A DNA stretch of 64,000 bases from NCBI GenBank assembly GCA_002328585.1, contig DCUV01000060.1, positions 72,482 through 136,481 of the forward strand, given 5' to 3'. The notes beneath the pieces were generated by a model. It had not been told where the DNA came from, searched no databases, and worked only from the letters and a program-made list of their open reading frames with translations. Made by a program: the position numbers and the translations under genes. Positions 4,296 to 62,454 of the stretch are shown here, in pieces. How positions within the stretch are numbered: position 1 is the stretch's first letter; the number at the start of each line of letters is the position of its first letter. This DNA is from Spirochaetia bacterium UBA2205. Lineage in GTDB: Bacteria > Spirochaetota > UBA4802 > UB4802.

Positions 4296-4490
4296 TCGCC
4301 GACGGTTTGGTAAGATCACTATCCAGGGAAGAAAATGTTTGGCGATAGTTATCCTGAATACTGAACTGGCTACAGACAAGGATTGTTTCAGAGTGGCAGT
4401 TGTGTTCAATGGTTTATGATAAGATCCTGCCATGGCGGCAGTCCATGTCTTAGAATGATATTGAGGAGATAATTCTATTTTCGGAAGGCC
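4296..4490 (+). repeat. Degenerate copy A of the dispersed intergenic repeat family (see findings)
   Basis: Shares GAAGAAAATGTTTGGCGATAGTTATCCTGAATA with the 5' part of copy B, and the 3' signature ..GAATGA..ATAATTCTATTTTCGGAAGG with copies B, C and D. Confidence 0.45.
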
Positions 4491-4882
4491 GATACCGTAT
4501 TGTACTAAGAAGGATATCCCAACGATAGATGCTATAAATAGATAAATAGATTAATAACAAATAAATACCGATACTTAAAACAATAAAAATTCTGCTGAAT
4601 TGCTGTCAGTGTAAATTATTTAAATCTCTATTTTACCAGGACATGTTTTGTATAAGTAGGGGTTGGAGATGAAATAGTATTCTATTTTGTTAATTATCGA
4701 ATTACAATATTATGTGCTATTTAGTAAATATATAAATAAAAATTAAATTAAATAAATATTCAAAAGTATGAAAGCATAATGGAGCACATTATAACGATTA
4801 TGTTAGAAATTAATTGTAAAAAAAATTTATTAATAATTTCGTAAAAAAGTTGTAATATAAAACTGGTGTGTGGTAGAATTGA

Positions 4883-4912: not shown

Positions 4913-6934
4913 ATGTATCCGCTTCTTTTTACACCAATAACCATTAATACATTACAGATTAAAAATAGAATTGCATATCCTGCGTTAGGATTACTTTATT
5001 CATATGATAGCTTATTAAATGACAGGTATTATGAATATTTCAGGGAAAAGGCTCAAGGTGGAGCTGGCCTTGTAACAGTGGGTCCAGTGGGGATTGATAT
5101 AGCAGGTTCAGGTATGATGGCATTGTCATTAGCTGATGACGATAAAATACCGTCCTTTAAAAAATTAACAACAATAATAAAAAGTGAAGGAGCACAAACC
5201 TTTGTGCAACTATTTCACGCTGGGGCTTATTCATATTCAAAACTTACCAATGATGTTCAACCTATTGCTCCGTCAAGTGTATATTCAAAATATTCAAAGC
5301 AAGTCCCCCGCGAGATGACACTTGAAGATATAGAGATGGTTCAAACAGCGTTTGTTAAAGCTGCGTTGCGGGCAAAGGAAGCAGGGTTTGATGGGATTGA
5401 AATCATTGCTTCAGCAGGGTATCTGATTACCCAGTTTCTATCGCCCATAACAAATAAACGAACAGACCACTATGGAGGTTCTTTTGAAAACAGGGTACGG
5501 TTCCCCCGTGAGGTAATAGAAAAAGTAAGAAAAGCTGTTGGTTTTGATTTCCCTCTTGGTATTAGAATGGCAGGGAATGATTTTGTTAAAGGCAGCAATA
5601 CGGATAGAGAAACCCCTCTGTTTGCAAAAGTTTATGAAGATGCTGGCGTTGATATCATAAATGTAACAGGTGGCTGGCATGAAGCTAAAATTCCACAATT
5701 GCCCATGGAATTACCTAGGATGGGATATGCTTATCTGGCGGCTACTATAAAAAAAGCAGTACATGTTCCGGTAATGGCTTCCAATAGGATAGCTACTCCT
5801 GAAGGAGCTGAAAAGATTTTGCGTGATAGCATGGCGGATATGGTTAATCTGGGACGTGTTTTGATTGCAGATCCTTATTGGCCAACAAAAGCTAAAGAGG
5901 GGAAAACAAATCTTATACGCCCGTGTGTTGGATGCAATCAGGGCTGTACTGATACATTATTTAGCGGGATGCCAGTAGGATGTGTAGTAAATGCCCGGGC
6001 AGGATACGAAGGTGCGCGCAATATAAAGAAAACAGATACTCCTCTCAGGATTATGGTCATAGGTGCGGGTCCTGGTGGGTTAGAAGCTGCAGTGCGAGCA
6101 AAAGAAGCAGGGCATGAGGTTGAATTGCATGAAATGTCAACTGATATTGGGGGGCAATTATGGATAGCTGCAGCACCACCTCATAAACATGAACTATTGG
6201 AGATTATACGATATTATCGTGCAATGGTGGAACATTTTGGTATCCCTGTATTTTATAATACTGCAATGACTGTGGAATTGATTAAAGAAAAAAATCCCGA
6301 TCATATCATTGTTGCAACGGGTGCTGAAGCGTTAATGCCACCTATTGAAGGGATTGGATTGCCACATGTTTATTCTGCATGGGATATATTACATAAAGAT
6401 CCTGTATTGGGAGAGAATGTTGCCGTTATTGGTGGGGGTGCGGTTGGCATTGAAACCGCACTGTTCATTGCTAATAAGGGGACAATATCTCCTGAAATTC
6501 TTCATTTTTTGATGTTTTTTGATGCTGAACCTGTTGACCGATTGAAAGAATTGATTACTCAGGGTACAAGCAAGGTTACAATCATTGAAATGCTACCATC
6601 TATTGGTAAAGATGTGGGACGATCAACGCGCTGGATTCTAAATACTGAACTGGAAAAATTTGGTGTAACCGTAATGACATCGGCAAAGGTTATTGAACTT
6701 ACCAATCATGATGTCATTTTTGAAAAAGAAAATACAATGCAAAAGATTCCAGTTGATAATGTTGTAATTGCTGTTGGTTCAAAACCAGTTAACTCATTGC
6801 TGGGGCAAATTGAAAAATGCGGAATTCAATATACAGCAATTGGTGATTGCAAAAAGATTGGTAAGATCAATGATGCAATCCATGAAGGATTCATGGCTAT
6901 TGTTAATTTGCAGAAAGAGGTAGTGAAAATATAA
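4913..6934 (+). CDS. fadH: 2,4-dienoyl-CoA reductase-like NADH:flavin oxidoreductase (OYE TIM barrel, 4Fe-4S, FAD/NAD(P)-binding domain)
   Basis: Old-yellow-enzyme N-terminal barrel, CVGCNQGC iron-sulfur motif, C-terminal GAGPGG and GGGAVG dinucleotide folds, 673 aa. Confidence 0.75.
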   Translation: MYPLLFTPITINTLQIKNRIAYPALGLLYSYDSLLNDRYYEYFREKAQGGAGLVTVGPVGIDIAGSGMMALSLADDDKIPSFKKLTTIIKSEGAQTFVQLFHAGAYSYSKLTNDVQPIAPSSVYSKYSKQVPREMTLEDIEMVQTAFVKAALRAKEAGFDGIEIIASAGYLITQFLSPITNKRTDHYGGSFENRVRFPREVIEKVRKAVGFDFPLGIRMAGNDFVKGSNTDRETPLFAKVYEDAGVDIINVTGGWHEAKIPQLPMELPRMGYAYLAATIKKAVHVPVMASNRIATPEGAEKILRDSMADMVNLGRVLIADPYWPTKAKEGKTNLIRPCVGCNQGCTDTLFSGMPVGCVVNARAGYEGARNIKKTDTPLRIMVIGAGPGGLEAAVRAKEAGHEVELHEMSTDIGGQLWIAAAPPHKHELLEIIRYYRAMVEHFGIPVFYNTAMTVELIKEKNPDHIIVATGAEALMPPIEGIGLPHVYSAWDILHKDPVLGENVAVIGGGAVGIETALFIANKGTISPEILHFLMFFDAEPVDRLKELITQGTSKVTIIEMLPSIGKDVGRSTRWILNTELEKFGVTVMTSAKVIELTNHDVIFEKENTMQKIPVDNVVIAVGSKPVNSLLGQIEKCGIQYTAIGDCKKIGKINDAIHEGFMAIVNLQKEVVKI

Positions 6935-11450: not shown

Positions 11451-11744
11451 GTTTTTCAATAAATAGTGCTTATGATTCATATCATGGTACAAAATACTTG
11501 ACGCTTGCAGTCATTTTTGTACACTGATACAGTACATTTACAAAATTTGTTTTTTGGGAGTTTTTCATAGCCCCATGGTAACTGTCCATGGTTTGGCAAG
11601 CTCACCAACTAAGGTTTTGAGTTGTACGCAGTACAGAATGAAACAAAATCGGTTCCAAAATAATTTTTTTAATGGTGGAGCAGCATTTCTCATATAAGAA
11701 AATGGTGAAGAAGATTAAGCACTATAACAATAATAATATTTTTT

Positions 11745-11950
11745 TTGAGGAGTTATCCATAGCCCGTCCAGGGCAACCAATAAAGGATGAAAATAGTTGG
11801 CGACAGCCATCCTGAATAACCCCTTGAAGTGGTTTCAGGATATCATTTAATTGTTTGGATTCTGGAGCAGGTCTGGAATGACAAAGGTGGCAAGAGTAGA
11901 TTTCGGGTTACGCCCGGAATGACAGTAGTGCATATTTCTATTTTCGGAGG
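11745..11950 (+). repeat. Copy B of the dispersed intergenic repeat. Its 3' end (TCTATTTTCGGAGG) supplies the leuS Shine-Dalgarno sequence.
   Basis: A CCTGAATAAC..TTCAGGAT hairpin, two GGAATGACA sub-repeats, and a conserved ~78-nt 3' module shared with copies C and D. Preceded by a partial extra 3' end (TTTTTTGAGGAGTTAT). Confidence 0.6.
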
Positions 11951-11959
11951 ACTTAAACA

Positions 11960-14425
11960 ATGTCAGAAGCTGAATATAATCCAAAAAAGATTGAAAAGAA
12001 GTGGCATGAACGATGGGATGAATCATTTATATTTCAATCGAAAAAAGATACTGACAGGAATAAGTATTATATATTAGAAATGTTTCCCTATCCTTCAGGG
12101 AGAATACATATGGGTCATGTTCGAAACTACTCTATTGGGGATGTTGTTGCACGATATAAACGTATGCAGGGATTTAATGTATTTCATCCTATGGGTTGGG
12201 ATGCTTTTGGTCTGCCCGCTGAAAATGCAGCTATCAAACATGGCATACCCCCTAAAAAATGGACCGACGATAACATTGATTATATGAAGAAACAGTTTAA
12301 AATGTTAGGTTATTCGTATGATTGGAACAGAGAAATTGCCACTCATACTCCAGAATATTATAAATGGAATCAATATATATTTATTAAGATGTATGAGAAG
12401 GGACTTGCCTATAAGCGTAAAGCTCCGGTCAACTGGTGTCCTACTTGCAATACGGTTCTGGCAAATGAACAGGTTGAAAATGGAGTGTGCTGGAGATGTG
12501 AAACACAGGTTACACAGCGTGAGTTAGAGCAATGGTTTTTTAAGATTACTGATTATGCTGAAGATCTATTAGCGGGACATGAAATATTAAAAGAAGGTTG
12601 GCCTGAGCGTGTAATAGTTATGCAACACAACTGGATAGGGCGTTCTACTGGACTTATTGTCAATTTCAAGGTAGCTGATACTGGTGAAGATTTTCCAATT
12701 TTTACCACACGCCCGGATACCATCTATGGTGTTACCTTTATGGTGATAGCTCCCGAGCATCCATTCCTTGAAAGGGTAAAAGATCAGAAGGTAAAAGATT
12801 TTATAAGGCAGATTAAAGCACAATCACTTATTGAACGCCTTTCAGAGGAAAAAGAAAAAGAAGGTATCGATACCGGTATTAAAATCATTAATCCTTTTAA
12901 TGGTGATATTGTGCCTCTGTATGTTGGTAATTTTGTTCTTATGGAATATGGAACAGGTGCGATTATGGCAGTACCTGCTCATGATACTCGTGACTTTGCC
13001 TTTGCTAAAAAATATACCATCCCTATTAAGGTTGTAATAGATAATCCTCAACATCCTGTTGATAGCAACACGATGAAAGATGCTTATATAGATGATGGAA
13101 TATGTGTTAATTCGGGACCATTTACAGGTTTGCATAATAGAGATGCCATCGAAGCAATAGCCGATTATGCAGAAAAAGAAGGCATAGGAAAAAGGAAAAT
13201 AAATTACAGGTTAAAGGATTGGCTCATTTCACGGCAGCGATACTGGGGATGTCCTATCCCCATTGTATATTGTGATAAGTGTGGTGCTCATCCCGTTGAC
13301 TATAAGGATTTACCTGTTATTTTGCCGGTAGATGTTGACTTCCACGGAGATTCTCGTTCACCGCTTACCATGATGCCTGAATTTTATAATGCTACATGCC
13401 CAGTTTGTGGTGGAAGTGCTCAACGCGAAACGGATACTATGGACACATTTGTGGATTCATCATGGTATTTTGCTAAGTTTACTTCGCCACATTCTACAGA
13501 GATATTTGATTTTGATGAGGTAAATTATTGGACACCTGTTGATCAGTACATTGGCGGGATTGAACATGCATGTATGCATCTTCTGTATGCACGATTCTTT
13601 ACCATGGTTTTGAATGATTTAGGATTACTACAGTATCGCGAACCATTTACACGGTTGTTGACGCAGGGGATGGTCATTAAAGATGGCGCCAAGATGAGTA
13701 AATCAAAGGGGAATGTTGTCGACCCGGATGATATTATCGATAAATATGGTGCTGATACAGTGCGTTTGTTCATGCTTTTTGCTGCTCCACCCGATAAAGA
13801 TCTGGACTGGTCAGATAAAGGAGTGGATGGGTGCTATAGATTTGTTAATAGAGTGTGGCGTATAATACAGAAGTATAGTGATTGTTATACCACATATAAT
13901 TTTGATACTATTGTGTTAGATAGTTCTCTGAAAAACTTAAGGAATGAAATCCACAGAACAGTTAAAGCTGTTACTCATGATATTGAAGATAGAATGCAAT
14001 TTAATACAGCTATCGCACGAATGATGGAACTTGTCAATGCACTCTATCTGGCAGATGAAACTCTGATACAAACTGACAGGGGCAAAATGGTTGTATCCGA
14101 ACTTTTTGACAAGCTTTTACCCATGTTAGGACCATTTATACCCCATGTTGCGGAGGAGTTATGGGAGCTATTAGGGCATAAGGATTTTATCGTCAATGCA
14201 GCATGGCCAGACTATATTGAAGAATTAACTACGAAAGAAGAGATAGAATTAGTTTTTCAAATTAATGGGAAGATACGGTCAAAGTGTAATGTAGCTGCAA
14301 ACATAACAAGAGAAGCAATGGAAAATGCCGCGCTGGAAGATGATAGAATAAAAGAAATGATTGCAGGGAAAACTGTTAAAAAGGTTATAGTAGTTCCTGG
14401 TAAACTGGTAAATATTGTTATATAA
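11960..14425 (+). CDS. leuS: Leucine--tRNA ligase
   Basis: HMGH and KMSKS class I motifs, editing domain, 821 aa with a typical LeuS N-terminus. Confidence 0.95.
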   Translation: MSEAEYNPKKIEKKWHERWDESFIFQSKKDTDRNKYYILEMFPYPSGRIHMGHVRNYSIGDVVARYKRMQGFNVFHPMGWDAFGLPAENAAIKHGIPPKKWTDDNIDYMKKQFKMLGYSYDWNREIATHTPEYYKWNQYIFIKMYEKGLAYKRKAPVNWCPTCNTVLANEQVENGVCWRCETQVTQRELEQWFFKITDYAEDLLAGHEILKEGWPERVIVMQHNWIGRSTGLIVNFKVADTGEDFPIFTTRPDTIYGVTFMVIAPEHPFLERVKDQKVKDFIRQIKAQSLIERLSEEKEKEGIDTGIKIINPFNGDIVPLYVGNFVLMEYGTGAIMAVPAHDTRDFAFAKKYTIPIKVVIDNPQHPVDSNTMKDAYIDDGICVNSGPFTGLHNRDAIEAIADYAEKEGIGKRKINYRLKDWLISRQRYWGCPIPIVYCDKCGAHPVDYKDLPVILPVDVDFHGDSRSPLTMMPEFYNATCPVCGGSAQRETDTMDTFVDSSWYFAKFTSPHSTEIFDFDEVNYWTPVDQYIGGIEHACMHLLYARFFTMVLNDLGLLQYREPFTRLLTQGMVIKDGAKMSKSKGNVVDPDDIIDKYGADTVRLFMLFAAPPDKDLDWSDKGVDGCYRFVNRVWRIIQKYSDCYTTYNFDTIVLDSSLKNLRNEIHRTVKAVTHDIEDRMQFNTAIARMMELVNALYLADETLIQTDRGKMVVSELFDKLLPMLGPFIPHVAEELWELLGHKDFIVNAAWPDYIEELTTKEEIELVFQINGKIRSKCNVAANITREAMENAALEDDRIKEMIAGKTVKKVIVVPGKLVNIVI

Positions 14426-43483: not shown

Positions 43484-45571
43484 ATGTCAGATGTAATAAC
43501 AACAACCCCTCAGTTTATACAGAAACGTGATGGCAGGGTAGTGCCATTTGATATTGAAAAGATCACAGAAGCAATCTTTAAAGCAGCAAAAGCAGTTGGC
43601 GGTACCGATAGGAATGCAGCAGTACATATTGCGGAATCAGTTGTTGATATATTATCCATATTGTATAAGGATAAACATATCCCAACGGTAGAAAATGTTC
43701 AGGATTTAGTTGAAAAGATGCTCATTGAAAAAGGGCATGCTAAGGTAGCCAAAGCATATATCCTCTACCGTGAACAGCACAGAAAGATACGAGAAAGTAA
43801 AGACCTTCTTAATGAAGGCATACAGCTCATTGAAGATTATCTTGACAGGTCAGATTGGCGGGTAAATGAGAATAGCAATATGAGCTATTCTCTTCAGGGA
43901 TTAAATAACCATATTGCTTCTGCAATTACTGCCAAATACTGGCTTGAACGTATTTATCCACCTGAGATACGCGATGCTCATACCAATTGTGAACTGCATC
44001 TTCATGATTTAGGGTTGCTGTCGGCTTACTGTGTAGGCTGGGATCTGCGAGATTTATTATTAACTGGTTTTGGAGGTGTTCCCGGAAAGGTTGAAAGCAG
44101 GCCGGCAAAACATTTCCGAAGCTCATTGGGGCAGATAGTCAATTTTTTTTATACATTACAGGGAGAATCGGCCGGTGCACAGGCATTTGCAAATTTTGAT
44201 ACGTACCTTGCGCCATTTATACGTTATGATAATCTGGATTATGCAGGTGTTAAGCAGTGTCTTCAGGAATTCATCTTTAATATGAACATACCAACTCGTG
44301 TAGGATTCCAGACGCCATTTACCAATGTTACCATGGATCTGACCGTACCTCGCTCAATTGCCAATGAACATGTCATTATTGGTGGAGAATGTATGGATAC
44401 AACCTATGCTGAATTTCAGAAAGAGATGGATATATTTAATACAGCTTTTGCAGAATGTATGTTTGAGGGTGATGCGCGACACCGAATTTTTACATTTCCC
44501 ATACCAACGTATAACATTACAAAAGATTTTGATTGGGATAATCCTTCCATACACCTTTTGTGGGAGATAACATCTAAATATGGTATTCCCTACTTTGCAA
44601 ATTTTGTAAATTCTGATATGGACCCAGACGATGCCCGCTCCATGTGTTGCCGATTAAGGCTTGATAATCGTGAACTGCGAAAACGAGGTGGTGGACTTTT
44701 TGGAGCTAATCCTTTAACGGGAAGTATTGGTGTGGTAACCATCAACATGCCAAGATTAGGGTACCTTTCTAAAACAAAGGATGAATTCCTTGCAAGTTTA
44801 TCACATTTGATGGATGTAGCAAGCAATTCATTGGAGATTAAAAGAAAAGTTTTAGAAAACTTTACCTCTCAAAATCTTTATCCCTATACAAAGTTTTATC
44901 TACGTGACGTATATAAACGATTCAAGAAGTACTGGATAAATCATTTTTCAACAATTGGACTTGTTGGTATGAATGAAGCCTGTTTAAACCTTTTAGGGCA
45001 GGACATTACAACTGATGAAGGGAAAGCTTTCACCGGGGAAGTGCTGGATTTTATGCGCAGTAAAATAGCCAGATATCAGCATGAAACAGGCAATTTATAT
45101 AATCTTGAAGCCACCCCTGCTGAAGGTGTTAGCTATAGGTTTGCTCGACATGATAAAAATAGATTTTTGGACATTATTACTGCTGGTAAGAATGAACCAT
45201 ATTATACAAATTCGATTCATCCACCGGTGGGATATGCTCACGATATATTTGATCTCCTTGACCATCAGGATCAGTTACAAGCAAAGTTTACCGGCGGTAC
45301 TGTTGTTCACTGTTTTATTGGAGAGAAGATTGATGATCCGGAAATGGTAAAAATACTGGTAAAATCAATAGCTTATAACTATCACATACCATATTTTACC
45401 ATTACGCCAACGTTTAGTATTTGCCCTGTTCATGGATATATACCAGGGAATCACACATATTGTCCTTATCCACATACAAAAGAAGAGCTTGAGATGTTTG
45501 GAATAGAAGTCGAAATAAAAGATAGGGAACTATCAAAACCCATAGAGACAACCAATCGGATTGTCTCGTAA
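43484..45571 (+). CDS. nrdD: Anaerobic ribonucleoside-triphosphate reductase NrdD body (ATP-cone plus barrel). It lacks the C-terminal glycyl-radical motif and has a Cys/His-variant zinc ribbon.
   Basis: ATP-cone N-terminus, NrdD core. C-terminus ..SICPVHGYIPGNHTYCPYPH..EIKDRELSKPIETTNRIVS has no RVxGY. ATG after GGGAG. The track ORF starts 126 nt upstream in AT-rich sequence. Confidence 0.85.
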   Translation: MSDVITTTPQFIQKRDGRVVPFDIEKITEAIFKAAKAVGGTDRNAAVHIAESVVDILSILYKDKHIPTVENVQDLVEKMLIEKGHAKVAKAYILYREQHRKIRESKDLLNEGIQLIEDYLDRSDWRVNENSNMSYSLQGLNNHIASAITAKYWLERIYPPEIRDAHTNCELHLHDLGLLSAYCVGWDLRDLLLTGFGGVPGKVESRPAKHFRSSLGQIVNFFYTLQGESAGAQAFANFDTYLAPFIRYDNLDYAGVKQCLQEFIFNMNIPTRVGFQTPFTNVTMDLTVPRSIANEHVIIGGECMDTTYAEFQKEMDIFNTAFAECMFEGDARHRIFTFPIPTYNITKDFDWDNPSIHLLWEITSKYGIPYFANFVNSDMDPDDARSMCCRLRLDNRELRKRGGGLFGANPLTGSIGVVTINMPRLGYLSKTKDEFLASLSHLMDVASNSLEIKRKVLENFTSQNLYPYTKFYLRDVYKRFKKYWINHFSTIGLVGMNEACLNLLGQDITTDEGKAFTGEVLDFMRSKIARYQHETGNLYNLEATPAEGVSYRFARHDKNRFLDIITAGKNEPYYTNSIHPPVGYAHDIFDLLDHQDQLQAKFTGGTVVHCFIGEKIDDPEMVKILVKSIAYNYHIPYFTITPTFSICPVHGYIPGNHTYCPYPHTKEELEMFGIEVEIKDRELSKPIETTNRIVS

Positions 45572-45749
45572 ACGTATATGTTGTTGGATAGATTGTATTT
45601 TAAAGTATTGCTTGACTGTATATTTATTTTTAAAGAGTTGTTGGTGGCTGCATTGCAGTTATGTTAAGGGATAAAAATGGAGTACTATTGTCACTCTGAA
45701 CAAAGTGAAGGATCTCGTCGTTTTATGAAAGATAGATTCTTTAGGAGTG

Positions 45750-45935
45750 TGTATCTCAGAATGACAGCGTGGGGCGTGTTATCCTGAATAATGTCCTGAA
45801 TTGGCTTCAGGATCATTTCAGGATAACAGTTACAAATTTGGATTCCTGAACAGGTCAGGATTGACAAAAGTGGCAAAAGAGATTCCTGGTCAAGTCCAGA
45901 ATGACATTGGCACATAAATCTATTTTCGGAGGGGG
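45750..45935 (+). repeat. Copy C of the dispersed intergenic repeat, between the nrdD body and the glycyl-radical ORF
   Basis: GTTATCCTGAA ... TTCAGGATAAC nested hairpins, a TTGACAAAAGTGGCAAAAGAGATTCC module, and 3' end GAATGACATTGGCACATAAATCTATTTTCGGAGG 9 nt before the ATG. Confidence 0.6.
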
Positions 45936-45942
45936 TTCTGAT

Positions 45943-46132
45943 GCAAAGAAATACTGAAAAGAAAATACCCGTCGAGGTATATTCCCGTGTTGTTGGTTAT
46001 TTCCGACCGGTGAATCAATGGAATAAAGGCAAGCAGGAAGAGTTCCATGAAAGAAAGGAATTCATGGCAAAAGAATTATTGAAGGTTGTAGATCATGAAT
46101 ATTCGGGGTATACAGAAAACATCACTCATTGA
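45943..46132 (+). CDS. Stand-alone NrdD glycyl-radical domain fragment (63 aa)
   Basis: ..VEVYSRVVGYFRPVNQWNKGKQEEFHERKEF matches the class III RNR glycyl-radical signature (RVxGY..WNxGKxxEfxdR). Own SD from the repeat. Overlaps the nrdG start by 38 nt. Confidence 0.7.
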
Positions 46133-52049: not shown

Positions 52050-53669
52050 CTACTTTTCAGTCTTTGGCTTCCGGTTTACTATCATTTGATGAGCTATTTG
52101 TAAAACATTCTGCATGATCCAGTATAATACCAATCCGGATGGCATATTCCAGAATATAACGATAAATATAAGTGGCATAAACAAAAGCATTTTTTGCTGT
52201 TGAGAGGCCTCGCCAGTAGACATTTTTTGTTGTAAATATGTTGTTGCTGTCATCACTATTGGTAAAATATTAATGTTGAATCCTGAAATGGTAAAAACAG
52301 TATCTGGTAATGAAAGATCCTTAATCCACAGAATAAATGGTGCCTGCCATAAATCTACGGAATTAATCAGAGCGCTATAGAGTGCAAAGAAAAATGGCAT
52401 TTGCAGCAATAGTGGTAAACACCCACCCATGGGGTTGACCTTGTTCTTTTTATATACCTCCATTATCTTCTTATTCAAAACATCAGGCTTATCTTTATAC
52501 TTTTCGCGAAGTTCTTGAATAACTGGATTTAATTCCTGCATCTTCTTCATTGACTCAGTAGAACGTTTGGTTAAAGGCAAGAACATTATCTTGGTTAAAA
52601 GGGAAAATATTACTAATGACCAGCCTAAATTCCCTAACAATTTATTAATGCCAAGCAAACACCACATCATAAAATCGCGTATAGGCTCTATCCATTTGCT
52701 TACATCGGCTGCATCTCCAATCTGTTTATCTACAGCTAAAAGTTTATCTTTATTTTTAGGCCCAACATATACCTTAAAAATGTGTTCTATTTTTTCGCCA
52801 GAATTTAGAGGTTTTACCGGTACAATAATACCCGTCCTGAATCCAGTATGTTCCCTGTTATCGTAAACAACACCAGAACCCTGAAAACCTTGCGGTATCA
52901 TTATGAGCAGATAGTACCTGCTCATGATACCTGCCCATTTTACGACACCATTAATTTGTTTAATATCTTCATGTTTTGAAAAAAAACCCGAGCCTTTTCG
53001 TGCTTTTTCAAAATCATCATCAAGATAATATATACTGTTCAATTCATTGTACGAATTATTAAAATCCATTGAGGGCCCTAAAAAATCTGAAGGAGAATAA
53101 ATTAATCTACCTTCGGGGAAAGAAAATTTGTTCTTCCCATTATTCGTTATACTGAATGACATCGTAAAAAATTGCCCTTTTTCATCAAAGGTAAATGTCT
53201 TTGTAATGTGCAATGGATTATTTTGCACGATAGCACCTGTAAAAAAGCGTATAGAGCCAGCTTCTTTTTGTAATTTCCAGTTTGTATAATCACTTTCTGT
53301 TGATAGCAAAAATTCTCCAGTTGTAACATGTACAGGAAAATCAAAAATACCCCTGGCAATATATTTACTTTTATTTACCACAAGCTCAATATTTCGGGTT
53401 TTATCAATAAAAGAAACACATGCTGCACCATGATTGGAAAGAACCGCTTTATAATAATGTGAATCAACAGTCACATCTTCCTGTAATCGGGATAATTCAA
53501 GAAATTTTGAAAGTTGTTTTAATTCTGGTTTTTTTATTTCAACCGTTTGTTCTACTTTCACTTTCTTATCTTGAACTGCAGGTTTTTTTTCCTGTGGTGG
53601 AAATAAATAAAACCATAGCATCCATATCAGCAAAGATAATAAAACTGCTATTAAAGCCCTTTTTTCCAT
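52050..53669 (-). CDS. yidC: Membrane protein insertase YidC
   Basis: Large periplasmic domain plus 5-TM 60-kDa insertase core. Confidence 0.9.
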   Translation of the reverse strand: MEKRALIAVLLSLLIWMLWFYLFPPQEKKPAVQDKKVKVEQTVEIKKPELKQLSKFLELSRLQEDVTVDSHYYKAVLSNHGAACVSFIDKTRNIELVVNKSKYIARGIFDFPVHVTTGEFLLSTESDYTNWKLQKEAGSIRFFTGAIVQNNPLHITKTFTFDEKGQFFTMSFSITNNGKNKFSFPEGRLIYSPSDFLGPSMDFNNSYNELNSIYYLDDDFEKARKGSGFFSKHEDIKQINGVVKWAGIMSRYYLLIMIPQGFQGSGVVYDNREHTGFRTGIIVPVKPLNSGEKIEHIFKVYVGPKNKDKLLAVDKQIGDAADVSKWIEPIRDFMMWCLLGINKLLGNLGWSLVIFSLLTKIMFLPLTKRSTESMKKMQELNPVIQELREKYKDKPDVLNKKIMEVYKKNKVNPMGGCLPLLLQMPFFFALYSALINSVDLWQAPFILWIKDLSLPDTVFTISGFNINILPIVMTATTYLQQKMSTGEASQQQKMLLFMPLIFIVIFWNMPSGLVLYWIMQNVLQIAHQMIVNRKPKTEK

Positions 53670-53781
53670 AACAACCTCTTGTTTAACTTTCTAGATATAA
53701 AATGAAAAAAAATATGACTATTGTTGAAATATTATAATAGGTGAAAAGGAGTGATATGAGGGGTAACAGTTAGAAATTATG

Positions 53782-54003
53782 CTAAGGAACAGGATCATAC
53801 CCGCCGTCACAATATGGATGACAGCGTAGTATACGCTTGATTGATAAAAAACCACCTTTAAAAAGTCCATGTTTACTCAATGCTTCTATTGCATAGCTTG
53901 AACATGTTGGATAAAATCTGCAAGCATTGGGTAACAATGGTGAAATAATAAGCTTATACATTTTTATCAATAATATTGGCAATGAAATAATGTTTATCTT
54001 CAT
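53782..54003 (-). CDS. yidD: Membrane protein insertion efficiency factor YidD
   Basis: ..[31 protein letters not shown].. signature. Confidence 0.85.
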
Positions 54004-54383
54004 TGTTTGAGCACTCCTGACCTAAGCAACAATTTTGTAATTAAACCTGAAAGGTGAGTATATGGCATTGTCTTACAGGTTTCATCAGGAAAAATAATAA
54101 CAGCAAAACCCTGTTGTATCTGAGGCAAAAGAGTATTAAGTATAGATTTTATTCTTCTTCTGATTTTGTTACGTTCAACTGCAACCCCAAAATTTTTATT
54201 AACAGCTATGGAAAAATGCGTAACTGATTCGTTGCCAATTAACAATATTTCATGTGCTGGTTGTATATGCACTATCATTCGTATACCTTTACTATAAAAT
54301 CGCCTGCCGTTAACAATAACATCTTTAAAACTCCTCCGCCCTTTTATTGAATATCTCCTTTTCACCGGAAAATAATTATACAA
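54000..54383 (-). CDS. rnpA: Ribonuclease P protein component
   Basis: RNR motif region (..[13 protein letters not shown]..). Position between rpmH and yidD. Confidence 0.85.
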
Positions 54384-54390
54384 ATATATG

Positions 54391-54549
54391 CTACTTTACA
54401 TTACGTTTTTCATCTGATACAGTTAGTTTACAACGCCCCTTTTGTCTTCTTCTTTTAAGTATTTCTCTTCCAGCTTTGGTACTCATCCTTTCTCTAAACC
54501 CATGTGTTCGTAATCGCTTGATTACACTTGGTTGAAATGTTCTTTTCAT
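54391..54549 (-). CDS. rpmH: 50S ribosomal protein L34 (52 aa). Missing from the ORF track because it is shorter than 60 aa.
   Basis: Manual translation: [52 protein letters not shown]. Confidence 0.9.
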
Positions 54550-54732
54550 TATTCCACCTCATTATTATGAATGTAATACGATAAAGTATTATATTTAAAA
54601 GTTTCATTATTACGTAGTATATTAAAAATGATAGCAAAGGATGTATTTTTAAATAATAGCACAACTTTATAATCAAACATAACAAAAGTACTATCTTATT
54701 TTTAAGAGCATCTATGTCAAGAATTTATTCTA

Positions 54733-57935: not shown

Positions 57936-58395
57936 GTGCATTATCCTATGGTATTGCAAACTTTTTTCATTTATTATTGGAATTGAATAATACTTCATTG
58001 CACTTACGCTATTGTTGCGTTTTCTTCAATAATTTTTTTCCCAACATTGCAATATTTTTTAAAGAACTATTTGTTATAAATATGCGATGATATAAAAAAT
58101 TGACTTTTTAAGAGTGCCTTTTAAAACTGATTATTGTATGTTATAAAATTGTAAAAAGTAGTTTTATTACTGTTGTGTGCTCAGAAAAAGATTAATGTTT
58201 TATGGTGTCACTCGTATTTTTTTATCTGTTACAGATTTATTAATAAATTGATTGACAAATTACAAATTTCATTTTCTAATTAATGCAATAATGTGTAAAT
58301 ATAGTAAAAAAGCATGGTGAGTGAATACGCTATAAAAATATACATATAAGGTGGAATACAACATATATTGTTCAATATAGTGCTTATATAAGATA

Positions 58396-58532
58396 GTTGT
58401 CGATGGACGGCGTTGTGGGCTCACCCGCAGGGGATGAAAATTCCGTGTTAAGCCCGGAATGACGAATGTGAAAAAAGAGATTCCGCACAAAGTCTGGAAT
58501 GACATTGACACATAATTCTATTTTTTGAGGAA
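58396..58532 (+). repeat. Copy D of the dispersed intergenic repeat (orphan, no downstream gene within about 180 bp)
   Basis: CCCGGAATGACGAATGTGAAAAAAGAGATTCCGCACAAAGTCTGGAATGACATTGACACATAATTCTATTTTTTGAGG. Followed by hairpin ATGCTCTTT-tgggtgggg-AAGGAGCAT. Confidence 0.55.
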
Positions 58533-58715
58533 TTATATGCTCTTTTGGGTGGGGAAGGAGCATTGAGTTGTATTTATACAAATACAATAAACGATAGGGT
58601 AATGTTATCCCGCGGGTAAGAACTGGCAATGCAATGATGTTGATATAGAAAAGATATTTTTGTCAAAATGCGATAGGTTGTGCAATGACTATGAATAGAT
58701 AAATGCGATGCCAGG

Positions 58716-59810
58716 ATGCATCACTCCGATACAAACACACTGAGGGATAGCATAGACCACGATATTGTATTTTTTTGGAGGGAAGTTGTTGTGAGTATAA
58801 AAGATATACTGATTTATTTTTATTTACCCGTTATATTATTTACTGTATTATGTTTTTGTGTAATTATTGTAGGTATTATTTACTGGATAAAAAAATATAA
58901 AGAACTTTTAATAATTCTTTTTTATTTTTTAATACATGCAGGAATGACTGCAATGTATATTTATCCATTTAATGTATTTGCGTTTAGTTTGCAATATGCG
59001 TTCTTTTTATTTTGTCTGTTGATGTTTTGTTTTAGTGCAGTTTTCATGTTGTCACCGGATACATGGAATAATTCAGATTCATTCTATAGAGCAGTGCAAT
59101 GTATTGTTGGGAAAAGTATTCTTGTTTATGCCAGTATAGTGTTTTTGACGCAAAAAGAGCAATTAATAATAAGCAGTGTTGATTGTATGGTATCCTTAGC
59201 ATTTATAGCAATGAAAACTAAACCTGCAACAAGCTGTGTTCAACCATTTGCAGAAAAGGGAAGATTTATTTTTATAATCGTGATTACAATGATTTTTTTA
59301 TGGATAAGTATAGCAAAAATATTTTTATATTATGTTTTAATATTGGGTATGGTTGTCCTTGGCATTATCAATGTTGCTTTTTTATGTGTCATAGCATTGA
59401 AGGTATATGTCAATGAAGCCATGAATTTTATTGCAATTCAGCAGGAAGGTTATTGTGGTATGTATGAAAAACATTTTAAAATTGTTCAGATAATTAAGGA
59501 GCATATCAATGAATACTACACTCACCCAATTGATAAATATACAATAGCACTCCAGTGTGAGATGAATCCTGATTATCTTTGCAAGATTTTCAAAAGTAAT
59601 GAAGGAGTTAGCATTAATGAATATATAAAAAATATACGGTTAAAGAAAGCATTGGAAACATTGTCAAATACTGATAGGAAAATAATTGAAATTGCCCTGG
59701 ATGTAGGTTATGATAACTTAGCAACTTTTTACAGGCATTTTACACAGTTTTATAAAATATCACCAAATAAGATAAGGATAAAAAAAAGTAAAGATGCAAC
59801 AACTGTTTAA
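58716..59810 (+). CDS. Membrane-anchored AraC-family regulator (multi-TM N-terminal domain plus C-terminal AraC HTH). Probable start is the GTG near 58790 after GGAGGG.
   Basis: About 7 transmembrane helices, then the HTH_AraC signature (..IALDVGYDNLATFYRHFTQFYKISPNKIR). Confidence 0.65.
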   Translation: MHHSDTNTLRDSIDHDIVFFWREVVVSIKDILIYFYLPVILFTVLCFCVIIVGIIYWIKKYKELLIILFYFLIHAGMTAMYIYPFNVFAFSLQYAFFLFCLLMFCFSAVFMLSPDTWNNSDSFYRAVQCIVGKSILVYASIVFLTQKEQLIISSVDCMVSLAFIAMKTKPATSCVQPFAEKGRFIFIIVITMIFLWISIAKIFLYYVLILGMVVLGIINVAFLCVIALKVYVNEAMNFIAIQQEGYCGMYEKHFKIVQIIKEHINEYYTHPIDKYTIALQCEMNPDYLCKIFKSNEGVSINEYIKNIRLKKALETLSNTDRKIIEIALDVGYDNLATFYRHFTQFYKISPNKIRIKKSKDATTV

Positions 59811-60491: not shown

Positions 60492-60640
60492 ATCTTATCA
60501 AGAGTGGTAGAGGGACTGGCCCTGTGAAACCACGGCAACCGGGATGAAAAAGGCCGGTGCCAATTCCAGCGGAAGATATTCCGGGAGATGAGATAGCAAT
60601 AAGTATCCGCTTATAGGTTCTTCCGGTAAGCGGTTTTTTT
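60492..60640 (+). ncRNA. SAM-I (S-box) riboswitch with downstream terminator hairpin, 5' of metX-metW
   Basis: TCTTATCAAGAGTGGTAGAGGGACTGGCCCTGTGAAACCACGGCAACC...GGTGCCAATTCCAGCGGAAG...GAGATGAGA matches the SAM-I consensus. Expression platform is a CCGCTTA..TAAGCGG hairpin plus T7. Confidence 0.9.
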
Positions 60641-60670: not shown

Positions 60671-61834
60671 ATGAAAGCGGAGATAATACCTGAAAATTCG
60701 GCTGGTATCGTTACCACTAATTATTATACTTTTGCTGAGCCACCTGATGAATTGTTATTGGTTTCAGGGAAAAAACTTGGGCCAATAACATTAGCCTACG
60801 AAACATACGGTACTCTTAACAGTGACAAAAGTAATGCCATATTAATACTTCATGCCCTTTCAGGTTCAGCTCATGCTGCAGGGTATCATGCAAAAAAAGA
60901 TATGTATCCAGGGTGGTGGGATAATTATGTTGGTCCCGGTAAAACTTTTGATACATCACACTATTTTATTATTTGTTCCAATGTTATTGGCGGATGTAGC
61001 GGGTCAACCGGCCCATCATCCATTAATCCTGAAACGGGAAAAGAATATGGTTTGGATTTTCCCATTGTCACTATTCAGGATATGGTAAATGCGCAATATC
61101 ATTTAATTAAATTTTTTGGGATACAAAAGCTTTTATCAGTTGTTGGAGGTTCAATGGGTGGGATGCAGGCATTGCAATGGTCAATATCATATCCTGATAT
61201 GGTGCAGTCTGTGGTAGCAATTGCAACGGCAGCGTCTCTTTCAGCACAGGGGATTGCCTTCAATGAAGTTGGCAGACAGGCAATTATGCTTGATCCCAAC
61301 TGGAATTATGGAGATTATTATAACAATGAAAATCCTAAGAATGGACTATCGCTTGCACGTATGATTGGACATATCACCTACCTGAGCGAGAAGCTTATGC
61401 ATGAAAAATTTGGCAGAAGATTGCAACATTCAGATATTTTTAAATTTCACATGGATCTTGAGTTTGAAGTTGAGTCATACCTTCACCATAAAGGGAATGA
61501 TTTTGTTCAGAGATTTGATGCAAACTCATATTTATATATCACAAAAGCCATTGACTATTTTGATTTAAAGAATGATTTTAATGGTGATCTGGCTAACGCT
61601 TTTGTTAATGTAAATTCTAATTACCTTGTTATAAGTTTTTCTTCTGACTGGTTATACCCGACTTCACAATCGCGGGAGATTGTTAGAGCATTGCGTATGA
61701 ACAGCAAAAATGTTATTTTTACCGAAATACAGAGTGATAAAGGGCATGATACATTTCTGCTGCCCCATGAACAATTAGAGCACAATATAGCTAATTTTTT
61801 AAAACGGGAGTTTGAAAAGGTTCACAGGAAATGA
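60671..61834 (+). CDS. metX: Homoserine O-acetyltransferase
   Basis: Alpha/beta hydrolase with the nucleophile elbow GGSMGG and a typical MetX N-terminus (..[31 protein letters not shown]..). Confidence 0.9.
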
Positions 61835-62454
61835 AGGAATACAGGGTTGCGTATGATTTGATTCTGGATGAGATACCCTATGGTGCACGCGTGCTTGATT
61901 TGGGATGTGGTGATGGTCAGTTGTTGAAGTTGCTACAAACTACAAAAAAAGTTAAAGGATTTGGTGTTGAAATCTCACCTGAAGGTGTAAGCCAATGTGT
62001 TGAAAAAGGATTGTACTGTTATCAGGGTGACATTGATGAAGGGCTGAATGATTATAAAGACAATTCATTTGATTATGTGATTGTGAATCAGACGTTGCAA
62101 AGTACAAAAAAACCAGAGGTTGTTATACGTGAATCACTCCGTATATCACTCAACGCTATCTTCAGTTTTCCTAACTTTGCCCATTATAGCTTGAGATTGT
62201 ATAGTTCATTCTATGGCAGGATGCCTAAAAATAAATTATTGCCCTATGAATGGTATGAAACGCCTAATATACATCTTTTAACAATAAAAGATTTTAGAGA
62301 TTTTTGTAATGCGTTTGGTTATCCTATAAAAAAAGAAATGCATTTTTCAACCATTCGTTGTCATTCGGTAAAGTTACCTGCTATGCCCAATCTTTTTGCA
62401 GAGTATGGTTTTTTTATATTGGATGGGGGACCATTTACCTCTGATACTATATGA
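61831..62454 (+). CDS. metW: Methionine biosynthesis protein MetW
   Basis: Motif I ..[12 protein letters not shown].. Overlaps the metX stop (ATGA). Confidence 0.85.

Follow-up and report, generated by a model that had tools for sequence, protein, structure and literature searches.

In a window of 64,000 nucleotides from the Spirochaetia bacterium UBA2205 (contig DCUV01000060.1, positions 72,482 to 136,481), we analyzed a modular, hairpin-rich repeat present in four intergenic copies, called here A to D. We consider it probable that the repeat is a lineage-specific, non-coding element whose insertions have spread it across 5' leaders of several genes, and whose 3' end serves as the translation-initiation region of the gene that follows. 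Copy B lies in the leader of leuS, and copy C lies between the two open reading frames (ORFs) of a split anaerobic ribonucleotide reductase, nrdD-large and nrdD-small. Repeats bringing a ribosome-binding site (RBS) to the gene before which they land are rare; the classic examples are REP2 in Neisseria and the IR repeats on Borrelia plasmids.

All four copies had been proposed in an initial annotation of this DNA, and we re-read each of them on the + strand where it had been placed, with A degenerate and the other three well preserved (Table 1). When the intergenic regions are compared by blastn, B and C are 78% identical over 118 nt (E = 1e-22) and also have the ATCCTGAA hairpin in common, C and D are 79% identical over 75 nt (E = 4.5e-14), and A matches B, C and D at 82-86% identity over 29-37 nt (E = 3e-5 to 4e-4). 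Two covariance models were built, R1 from the 3' module and R2 from a 26-nt hairpin unit alone. Run unfiltered on both strands of the window, R1 matches only A-D and their internal units; R2 recovers seven units, every one within B, C or D. The window is 100% identical to positions ~383,217-447,216 of contig DHGI01000070.1 from an anaerobic-digester Spirochaetota metagenome-assembled genome (MAG; GCA_002402695.1), which extended it by ~16 kb and revealed a fifth copy, E. The beginning of copy C, initially set at 45750, was moved to about 45689, since the stretch 45689-45766 recurs as well: over 79 nt it shares 83.5% identity with L045:20024-20102 in copy E, where TGTCATTCTGAACGAAGTGAAGAATCTC-type units are also present. 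Elements of this family range from 90 to 260 nt and contain no conserved ORF, upstream mini-ORFs varying in frame and length. The window genes that we scanned are ordinary chromosomal genes (beta-oxidation, leuS, nrdD/nrdG, PPDK, yidC/rnpA, metX), and sequences of the window also turn up in anaerobic-digester metagenomes.

An alignment of ten distinct copies reveals a common anatomy. Each copy is a direct array of one to four units of ~40 nt, followed by an A/U-rich tail, CAUAAUUCUAUUUU, and a Shine-Dalgarno (SD) sequence. The unit consists of an 8-bp hairpin, AUUCCNGG...CCNGGAAU, whose base, AUUC...GAAU, is conserved while its top varies, then GACA and a short linker in which UUGGC is frequent; degenerate versions of the GACA element read GGAUGA(A/C)A. 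The tail, common to all copies, reads (C/G)AUAAUUCUAUUUU and leads into the SD-like motif. Units of the L type have the stem AUCCUGAA/UUCAGGAU, which is nested in C. A single unit is found in the copy upstream of glyQ, about three in the copies upstream of a sufC-like gene and of a lipoprotein-like gene, and four in B and in a metagenome copy, L012; C and E carry an additional unit at the 5' end, in inverted orientation. The nested hairpins with CCTGAA/TTCAGG arms described initially are confirmed; the outer arms in copy C, TGTTATCCTGAA/TTCAGGATAACA, form a perfect 12-nt pairing and enclose ATCCTGAA/TTCAGGAT. The direct GGAATGACA sub-repeats are likewise present, at a period of 40-41 nt, and correspond to the 3' ends of the 26-nt hairpin units.

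The leuS leader may hold traces of a further copy. A 31-nt direct repeat (84% identity) occurs at 11544-11573 and, 190 nt away in the same leader, at 11735-11765, with a decayed tail-like stretch, TTTTTTTTGAGGAG, at 11740-11752 on the 3' side of the region that we call B'. This region may be an older, decayed copy on which B was stacked, or an internal duplication. The extra partial 3' end reported earlier on the 5' side of B is a weak match, agreeing with the end of D at 15 of 16 nt.

The shared 3' module, already recognized in the initial annotation, ends in TCTATTTTCGGAGG in both B and C; the match is exact, and the two sequences diverge right after it. The GGAGG of this module lies 9 nt 5' of the leuS ATG and 8 nt 5' of the nrdD-small ATG, and we confirm that no other SD exists at either start. 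At loci outside the window, the repeat SD is also the only one available to glyQ, to the sufC-like gene and to the lipoprotein-like gene. The initial annotation had proposed testing whether copies always precede a start codon at fixed spacing; a start 8-9 nt after the SD was found in five loci out of nine, namely B, C and the copies of sufC, glyQ and the lipoprotein-like gene. The other loci keep TCTATTTT and an SD-like motif despite the absence of an adjacent gene start, ending in TTCTATTTTCGGAAGG (A), TCTATTTTTTGAGG (D), TTCTATTTTAAGAGG (E) and TCTATTTTTTTGGAGG (L012). No start codon follows the motif in A, where the next gene begins at 4913, and in D only a 9-codon mini-ORF (ATG at 58537) precedes an AraC-type gene that begins at 58716. 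Since copies without a nearby gene start retain this end, the SD-like motif travels with the element. The translation-initiation signal facing outward from the repeat, as initially proposed, does therefore belong to the repeat, but only about half of the copies deliver it to a start codon. B, C and D diverge directly after the SD; in the copies of sufC and glyQ, CTATCGCA is common to both as far as the ATG. In all nine loci whose downstream gene could be determined, the copy is co-oriented with that gene.

The element would be transcribed as part of the mRNA leader. By consensus scan only, no sigma-70-like site lies within B, C or D on the + strand. At leuS, the sole promoter-like site stands upstream of the element, in a region (11451-11539) that is 98.9% identical between strains; this promoter-like site, with its AAAATACTTGACG motif, is conserved in an element-free relative. 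For nrdD-small, transcription would have to read through from nrdD-large, and no intrinsic terminator was found on the sense strand. The unpaired A/U-rich tail and the SD would then act as the initiation region of the ORF 8-9 nt downstream, so that insertion beside a start codon would be tolerated even at the essential genes leuS and glyQ or between the two halves of nrdD. We also considered a leader peptide or upstream ORF, as an SD-like motif followed by ATG or ATA opens several copies, and rejected it: neither the frame nor the length (4-36 codons) nor the start codon is constant among copies.

In support of insertion, as opposed to an ancestral leader, three orthologous sites in relatives lack the element. 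The order CLC-leuS is kept in relatives whose LeuS is 87% and 73% identical, with a spacer of 148-149 nt against 509 nt here. Between the HDOD gene and glyQ, the spacer measures 87 nt where the element is present; two relatives, whose GlyQ is 93% and 86% identical, have spacers of 25 and 66 nt, respectively. The nrdD-large/nrdD-small spacer is 16-45 nt long, with an SD of its own, in three relatives (77-81% identity), against 369 nt in the window, where copy C makes up the 3' two-thirds. R1 has no match in ~60 kb of the relatives' orthologous sequence, and R2 none in ~45 kb. The initial annotation had reasoned that empty sites in relatives would favor mobility over a regulatory leader, and this is what these three sites do. 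The insertions are not very recent, because strains 5-10% apart at synonymous sites (L025, L001 and L024) share the element.

The ORF behind copy C had been described as an NrdD glycyl-radical ORF. It does contain the motif RVVGY, but it is a 63-aa ORF natively separate from the main nrdD gene; its counterparts in relatives are 61-65 aa long and match the NRDD profile. A group I or II intron, or another intervening sequence, splitting nrdD was rejected: not one of the 120 closest NrdD homologues extends as far as the glycyl-radical motif, and in relatives the small ORF follows 16-45 nt further 3'. The anaerobic ribonucleotide reductase is natively split in this Spirochaetota clade (the window, L033, L035 and L036), with a large ORF and a separate 61-65-aa RVVGY ORF, an arrangement whose discussion we did not find in the literature searched. 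Separately, the last codons of nrdD-large, which encode a variable C-terminal tail, hold a perfect 9-bp hairpin, GAGACAACC..GGTTGTCTC (45545-45567), flagged as terminator-like on the minus strand only.

Further genomic copies, which the initial annotation had suggested looking for, do exist outside the window. The family occupies at least ten loci in one species-level lineage, five of them in ~80 kb of a single contig. An exact-pattern genome scan with a strict form of the 3' module detected it in two contigs of the Spirochaetota MAG AMR_MDS_4586. A looser pattern returned 24 metagenome stretches, about nine of which are AT-rich chance matches; the others comprise strain variants of the leuS and nrdD-small loci, the copies upstream of glyQ, of the sufC-like ABC ATPase gene and of the lipoprotein-like gene (which encodes a signal peptide), two copies with no adjacent start codon (L012 and L032), and one palindromic relative, L023, which comes from another metagenome. 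The MAGs with the glyQ and sufC loci and the window belong to one species-level lineage, as the prefixes of protein accessions show (for instance, HOM86467 is the exact nrdD-small product of the window, HOM87417 the exact GlyQ of L008). The 3'-module pattern had no match in viral contigs, and a phage origin was rejected on this ground. As an aside, the sequence directly 5' of the sufC-associated copy contains a (GAAGT)5 microsatellite and a stretch of masked N (L007:7230-7265, - strand).

Two metagenome loci bear on how the element may move. At L029:540-810 (ERZ1026800, a 1.3-kb contig with coverage of ~1), an element ~99% identical to C, together with a diverged, 44-aa nrdD-small-like ORF, sits behind an unrelated 167-aa ORF, not nrdD-large. 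The contig represents a second site in the genome or a paralogue, or else a low-coverage assembly that is chimeric. L023:651-811 (Ga0316605) is a palindromic relative of ~160 nt made of two inverted hairpin-GAATGAC units, with a 17-nt perfect core of terminal inverted repeats (TIRs), AGAGACTTCTGAAAAAT/ATTTTTCAGAAGTCTC, that takes in the TCTATTTTTCAGAAG end. Judged from its sequence, L023 suggests that the family descends from a true MITE (miniature inverted-repeat transposable element) and has relatives in other organisms.

The hairpins are kept at the RNA level. Across 13 aligned units, 90.4% of cells are paired, with changes on both sides at three pairs and eight G·U against two A·C combinations; slid controls of the same alignment fall to 21-56%. 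Between strains, a G-C pair becomes U-A in the R hairpin of copy C and a C-G pair becomes U-A in a 5' unit, and each of the five stem substitutions separating the window from L025 maintains or betters pairing. Copy B folds at -64.4 kcal/mol in the sense orientation versus -46.4 in antisense, the fold of copy C has a z-score of -4.0, and the RNAalifold consensus leaves the tail and the SD unpaired. Most likely, the hairpins insulate the initiation region or stabilize the 5' end of the mRNA. Overall, the primary sequence drifts at roughly the pace of synonymous sites: copy B is 92.9% identical between strains, against 90.5% at third codon positions of leuS and 95.6% at those of the CLC gene, and for copy C the identity is 87.7%, compared with 90.9-92.7% at third codon positions. 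The pattern fits a structure-constrained, otherwise nearly neutral repeat, and not a ligand-sensing leader.

The same hairpins could also be those of a cis-regulatory leader RNA (a riboswitch, a protein-binding leader or an attenuator) co-regulating leuS, glyQ, the sufC-like gene, nrdD-small and others, an alternative that the initial annotation had raised. G·U and compensatory changes do uphold the sense-strand hairpins, in five loci the placement of the element beside the SD does not vary, and two of the five genes served encode aminoacyl-tRNA synthetases. In a possible variant, the repeated hairpin-GGAAUGACA units, together with the GGA within the SD, would be recognized by a trans-acting RNA-binding protein. 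Repeated GGA-containing motifs recall CsrA-type binding-site arrays; here, however, the GGA sits in a stem and not in a loop. We hold such a leader to be quite unlikely, as orthologous leaders in relatives are devoid of the element, primary sequence diverges at the pace of synonymous sites, unit number varies from one to four, the genes downstream have no function in common and four copies lie next to no gene. Nor is there any conserved pairing that would sequester the SD. Sequestration, for instance in a thermosensor, was considered because in the minimum-free-energy fold of B, GAAAAUAG is paired to CUAUUUUC, and a UCC further upstream takes up part of the SD; it was rejected, as C, L012 and L028 lack these partners or have them altered, and the consensus fold opposes it as well.

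Known RNA families were searched for with Rfam 15. At the gathering threshold, the sole match in the whole window is a SAM riboswitch at 60492-60594, and none of the repeat copies is matched; scans of A, B, C and D by E-value gave chance-level matches only, with no T-box. No tRNA or tmRNA gene was found in the window, and a literature search by sequence words returned primers or nothing. Membership of a known RNA family was therefore rejected, in line with the initial annotation, which had recognized no named family.

How the element spreads may be approached through its ends. Convincing TIRs exist in the long form only (C, L029 and L023). In C, the inverted module on the left matches the module on the right, with a score that was reached in 3 of 500 shuffles. 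Mobilization in trans, in the manner of a MITE, is slightly favored over recombinational copying of a 5' untranslated region (5'-UTR) cassette, because of the inverted terminal unit in C, L029 and E, the L023 palindrome, and the presence in L029 of the same element behind an unrelated gene.

Several observations weigh against the reading of the repeat as an inserted element that donates its SD. RBS donation is not universal, four of the nine loci (A, D, E and L012) feeding no gene start. The SD and spacer of glyQ resemble the native ones of an element-free relative; at this locus the SD could be an ancestral, native one, or else the boundary of the element could fall within sequence common to both. 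TIRs are not significant in B (GAAAATAG/CTATTTTC, 8 nt) or in D. Target-site duplications had been looked for at the suggestion of the initial annotation, and no consistent one flanks the copies. Among the ORFs scanned (31 of the 59 window ORFs of at least 100 aa), none encodes a transposase or a REP-associated tyrosine transposase (RAYT). Finally, we infer transcription, translation from the element SD and a role for the hairpins from sequence alone. The SD/ATG itself was considered as a target-site duplication and rejected, since the 'AGGAT' at the 5' flank better fits the degenerate GGAUGA(A/C)A end of another unit or the tail of an older copy.

The lack of target-site duplications would be expected if, instead, a 5'-UTR or translation-initiation cassette had been copied by recombination with no transposition machinery, through microhomology at U-rich SD regions or through unequal crossing-over; recombinational 5'-UTR copying is the proposed origin of Neisseria REP2. 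The tail indeed resembles native initiation regions of the lineage, where a U-run followed by GGAG is common, but the element-specific CATAATTCTATTTT is not general among the initiation regions of the window. Other features also agree with copying, namely the glyQ junction inside sequence common to the native SD region, SD-like sequence at the 5' flank of several copies, the possible B'/B tandem stack and the variable number of tandem units. Copying does not account for the inverted terminal module of the long form in C, L029 and E, for the 17-nt perfect TIR core of L023 or for the ~99% identical element behind an unrelated gene in L029, and we judge it unlikely, if the most plausible of the alternatives.

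The elements could also be of the type of repetitive extragenic palindromes (REPs) and the mosaics built from them (BIMEs), the hairpin and GACA being recognized at the DNA level by a RAYT and the SD-like end being incidental. A 26-nt imperfect palindrome with a conserved flanking tetranucleotide does have the form of a REP, and C and E are mosaics with units in both orientations. Units are mostly direct, however, not alternating, and in ~80 kb they are confined to the composite elements B, C, D and E, with no R2 match in the ~45 kb of relatives. G·U combinations outnumber A·C ones and the sense strand folds much better, both of which point to RNA, while strict co-orientation with downstream genes and a retained SD are unexpected for REPs. 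This makes a REP/BIME origin very improbable. A generic scan of the window for a hairpin followed by GAC gave 17 matches against ~10 in shuffles and is uninformative.

Insertion and regulation might also be combined, in a mobile translation-initiation cassette that targets the SD/start-codon region and is read, through its hairpin-GGAAUGACA units, by a common post-transcriptional regulator. Targeting of this kind would explain the stacked B'/B arrangement and the SD-plus-ATG relics at 5' flanks. It would allow harmless spread through essential genes and amount to a translational regulon built by a transposon; we rate this combined scheme as improbable, on a par with the leader RNA.

Neisseria REP2 is reportedly to be credited to Parkhill 2000 and Morelle 2003, and the IR-A/IR-B repeats of Borrelia burgdorferi plasmids are said to go back to Dunn 1994. 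REP2 repeats are 120-150 bp long, occur in ~26 copies with two internal stem-loops and no TIRs, and carry a promoter, an RBS and an ATG immediately 5' of genes; the plasmid-borne IR-A/B repeats of Borrelia have the same signature (Delihas 2011, PMC3184786). The present element resembles REP2 in being intergenic, ~120-150 bp in size and possibly present in tens of copies, with internal stem-loops and, in most copies, no clear TIRs, and in forming part of a 5'-UTR where it carries the RBS of the downstream gene. It differs in that REP2 has a promoter and an ATG and marks a co-regulated gene set, whereas here a search for promoter-like hexamers gave none, hairpin units vary in number and the downstream genes are unrelated housekeeping genes; the phyla also differ, and the likeness is one of description only. 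With the Borrelia repeats it shares a spirochaete host, a size of ~180 bp, two internal inverted repeats, a position directly 5' of genes and the supply of an RBS. Those repeats are plasmid-borne, of low copy number and equipped with promoter and ATG, while ours is chromosomal and modular, with insertion polymorphism at conserved housekeeping loci; this likeness, too, is by description only. Of the features that define both systems, a position 5' of ORFs with an RBS-supplying 3' end (five of nine loci) and internal stem-loops are present, and an own promoter was not detected by consensus scan.

Other repeats resemble the element in part. Pneumococcal BOX elements (boxA-(boxB)n-boxC) have a variable number of middle modules of ~40-45 nt and are transcribed, hairpin-forming, non-autonomous and located near gene starts, but they have no terminal SD used by a downstream gene, and their sequence and host are unrelated. 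MITEs such as Correia (CREE/NEMIS), ERIC and RUP are small, non-coding, dispersed, polymorphic in insertion and co-transcribed, and they alter expression signals; our long form has inverted terminal modules as they do. Classical MITEs, though, have clear TIRs, target-site duplications (TA for Correia) and either orientation, whereas here a consistent duplication is absent, the TIRs of most copies are weak and orientation is strict. REPs and BIMEs share with the element a short imperfect palindrome plus a conserved flanking tetranucleotide as the building block of mosaics; REPs are numerous, often solitary or alternating and typically at gene 3' ends, while the present units occur only in composites, 5' of genes.

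The repeat is thus dispersed, structured, non-coding, shorter than ~500 bp and polymorphic for presence or absence at three orthologous sites, which supports the mobile character suggested initially without establishing membership of the MITE or REP families. Because target-site duplications were not found, nor solitary, high-copy units in ~80 kb, we file it as an RBS-bearing, MITE-like upstream repeat of no named family. By comparison with the systems above, the family appears to be new and lineage-specific, and its kind, the RBS-bearing upstream repeat, to be rare but already described.

No new category of element is opened by this finding, but the family allows conserved housekeeping loci (leuS, glyQ and the split nrdD spacer) to be compared before and after a natural insertion, and to do so unusually cleanly. 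These comparisons would indicate that an initiation region carried by the repeat can take the place of a gene's own, even in essential genes or between two ORFs that need co-expression. For annotation, such leaders are easily taken for riboswitch-like RNAs, and the hairpin units create spurious small ORFs.

Table 1. Repeat copies, their parts and associated genes (window coordinates except for copy E; R2, 26-nt hairpin unit matched by this model)
Feature	Position	Strand	Remarks
Copy A	4296..4490	+	Degenerate; blastn matches to B, C and D; R1 E = 8.6e-4
A, L-type hairpin region	4302-4402	+	
A, R-type module with tail	4423-4499	+	
A, SD-like GGAAGG	4483-4488	+	
leuS promoter candidate	11498..11525	+	Sigma-70-like TTGACG-16-TACACT; 5' of element
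B' candidate	11540..11734	+	11544-11573 resembles 5' end of B; weak, R1 E = 0.8
Copy B	11735..11950	+	Inside leuS 5' leader; leuS ATG at 11960
B, first hairpin	11752-11777	+	
B, L hairpin	11809-11841	+	ATCCTGAA/TTCAGGAT; arms 11809-11816 and 11834-11841
B, M unit	11858-11883	+	R2
B, R unit	11899-11924	+	R2
B, A/U-rich tail	11925-11945	+	
B, SD GGAGG	11946-11950	+	
leuS	11960..14425	+	Sole SD is 3' end of copy B
nrdD, large ORF	43484..45571	+	ATP-cone and NRDD profile positions 1-533; stops before glycyl-radical motif
Copy C, long form	45689..45932	+	Spacer between nrdD-large and nrdD-small; ATG at 45941
C, inverted unit	45689-45716	+	TGTCACTCTGAAC..GGATC
C, direct 5' unit	45735-45766	+	R2
C, nested L hairpin	45777-45828	+	Outer arms 45777-45788 and 45817-45828
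C, M unit	45841-45866	+	R2
C, R unit	45881-45906	+	R2
C, tail	45907-45927	+	
C, SD GGAGG	45928-45932	+	
nrdD, small ORF	45941..46132	+	63 aa; glycyl-radical motif RVVGY; NRDD profile positions 532-562; sole SD is 3' end of copy C
Copy D	58390..58530	+	Variant 5' part; units, then tail
D, units	58439-58464; 58479-58504	+	R2
D, SD-like GAGG	58527-58530	+	
Copy E	L045:19900-20125		Contig DHGI01000070.1, ~8 kb past right end of window; ~110 nt 5' of acyltransferase gene

Two further features of the window are of separate interest. A yidC-yidD-rnpA-rpmH cluster occupies 52050-54550 on the - strand, with jag just downstream; this gene set is usually found near dnaA/oriC, and no adjacent dnaA is present in the window. 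The SAM (S-box) riboswitch mentioned above (+ strand, 92.5 bits) lies 5' of a metX-like homoserine O-acetyltransferase gene (60671-61834) and a metW-like gene (61831-62454).

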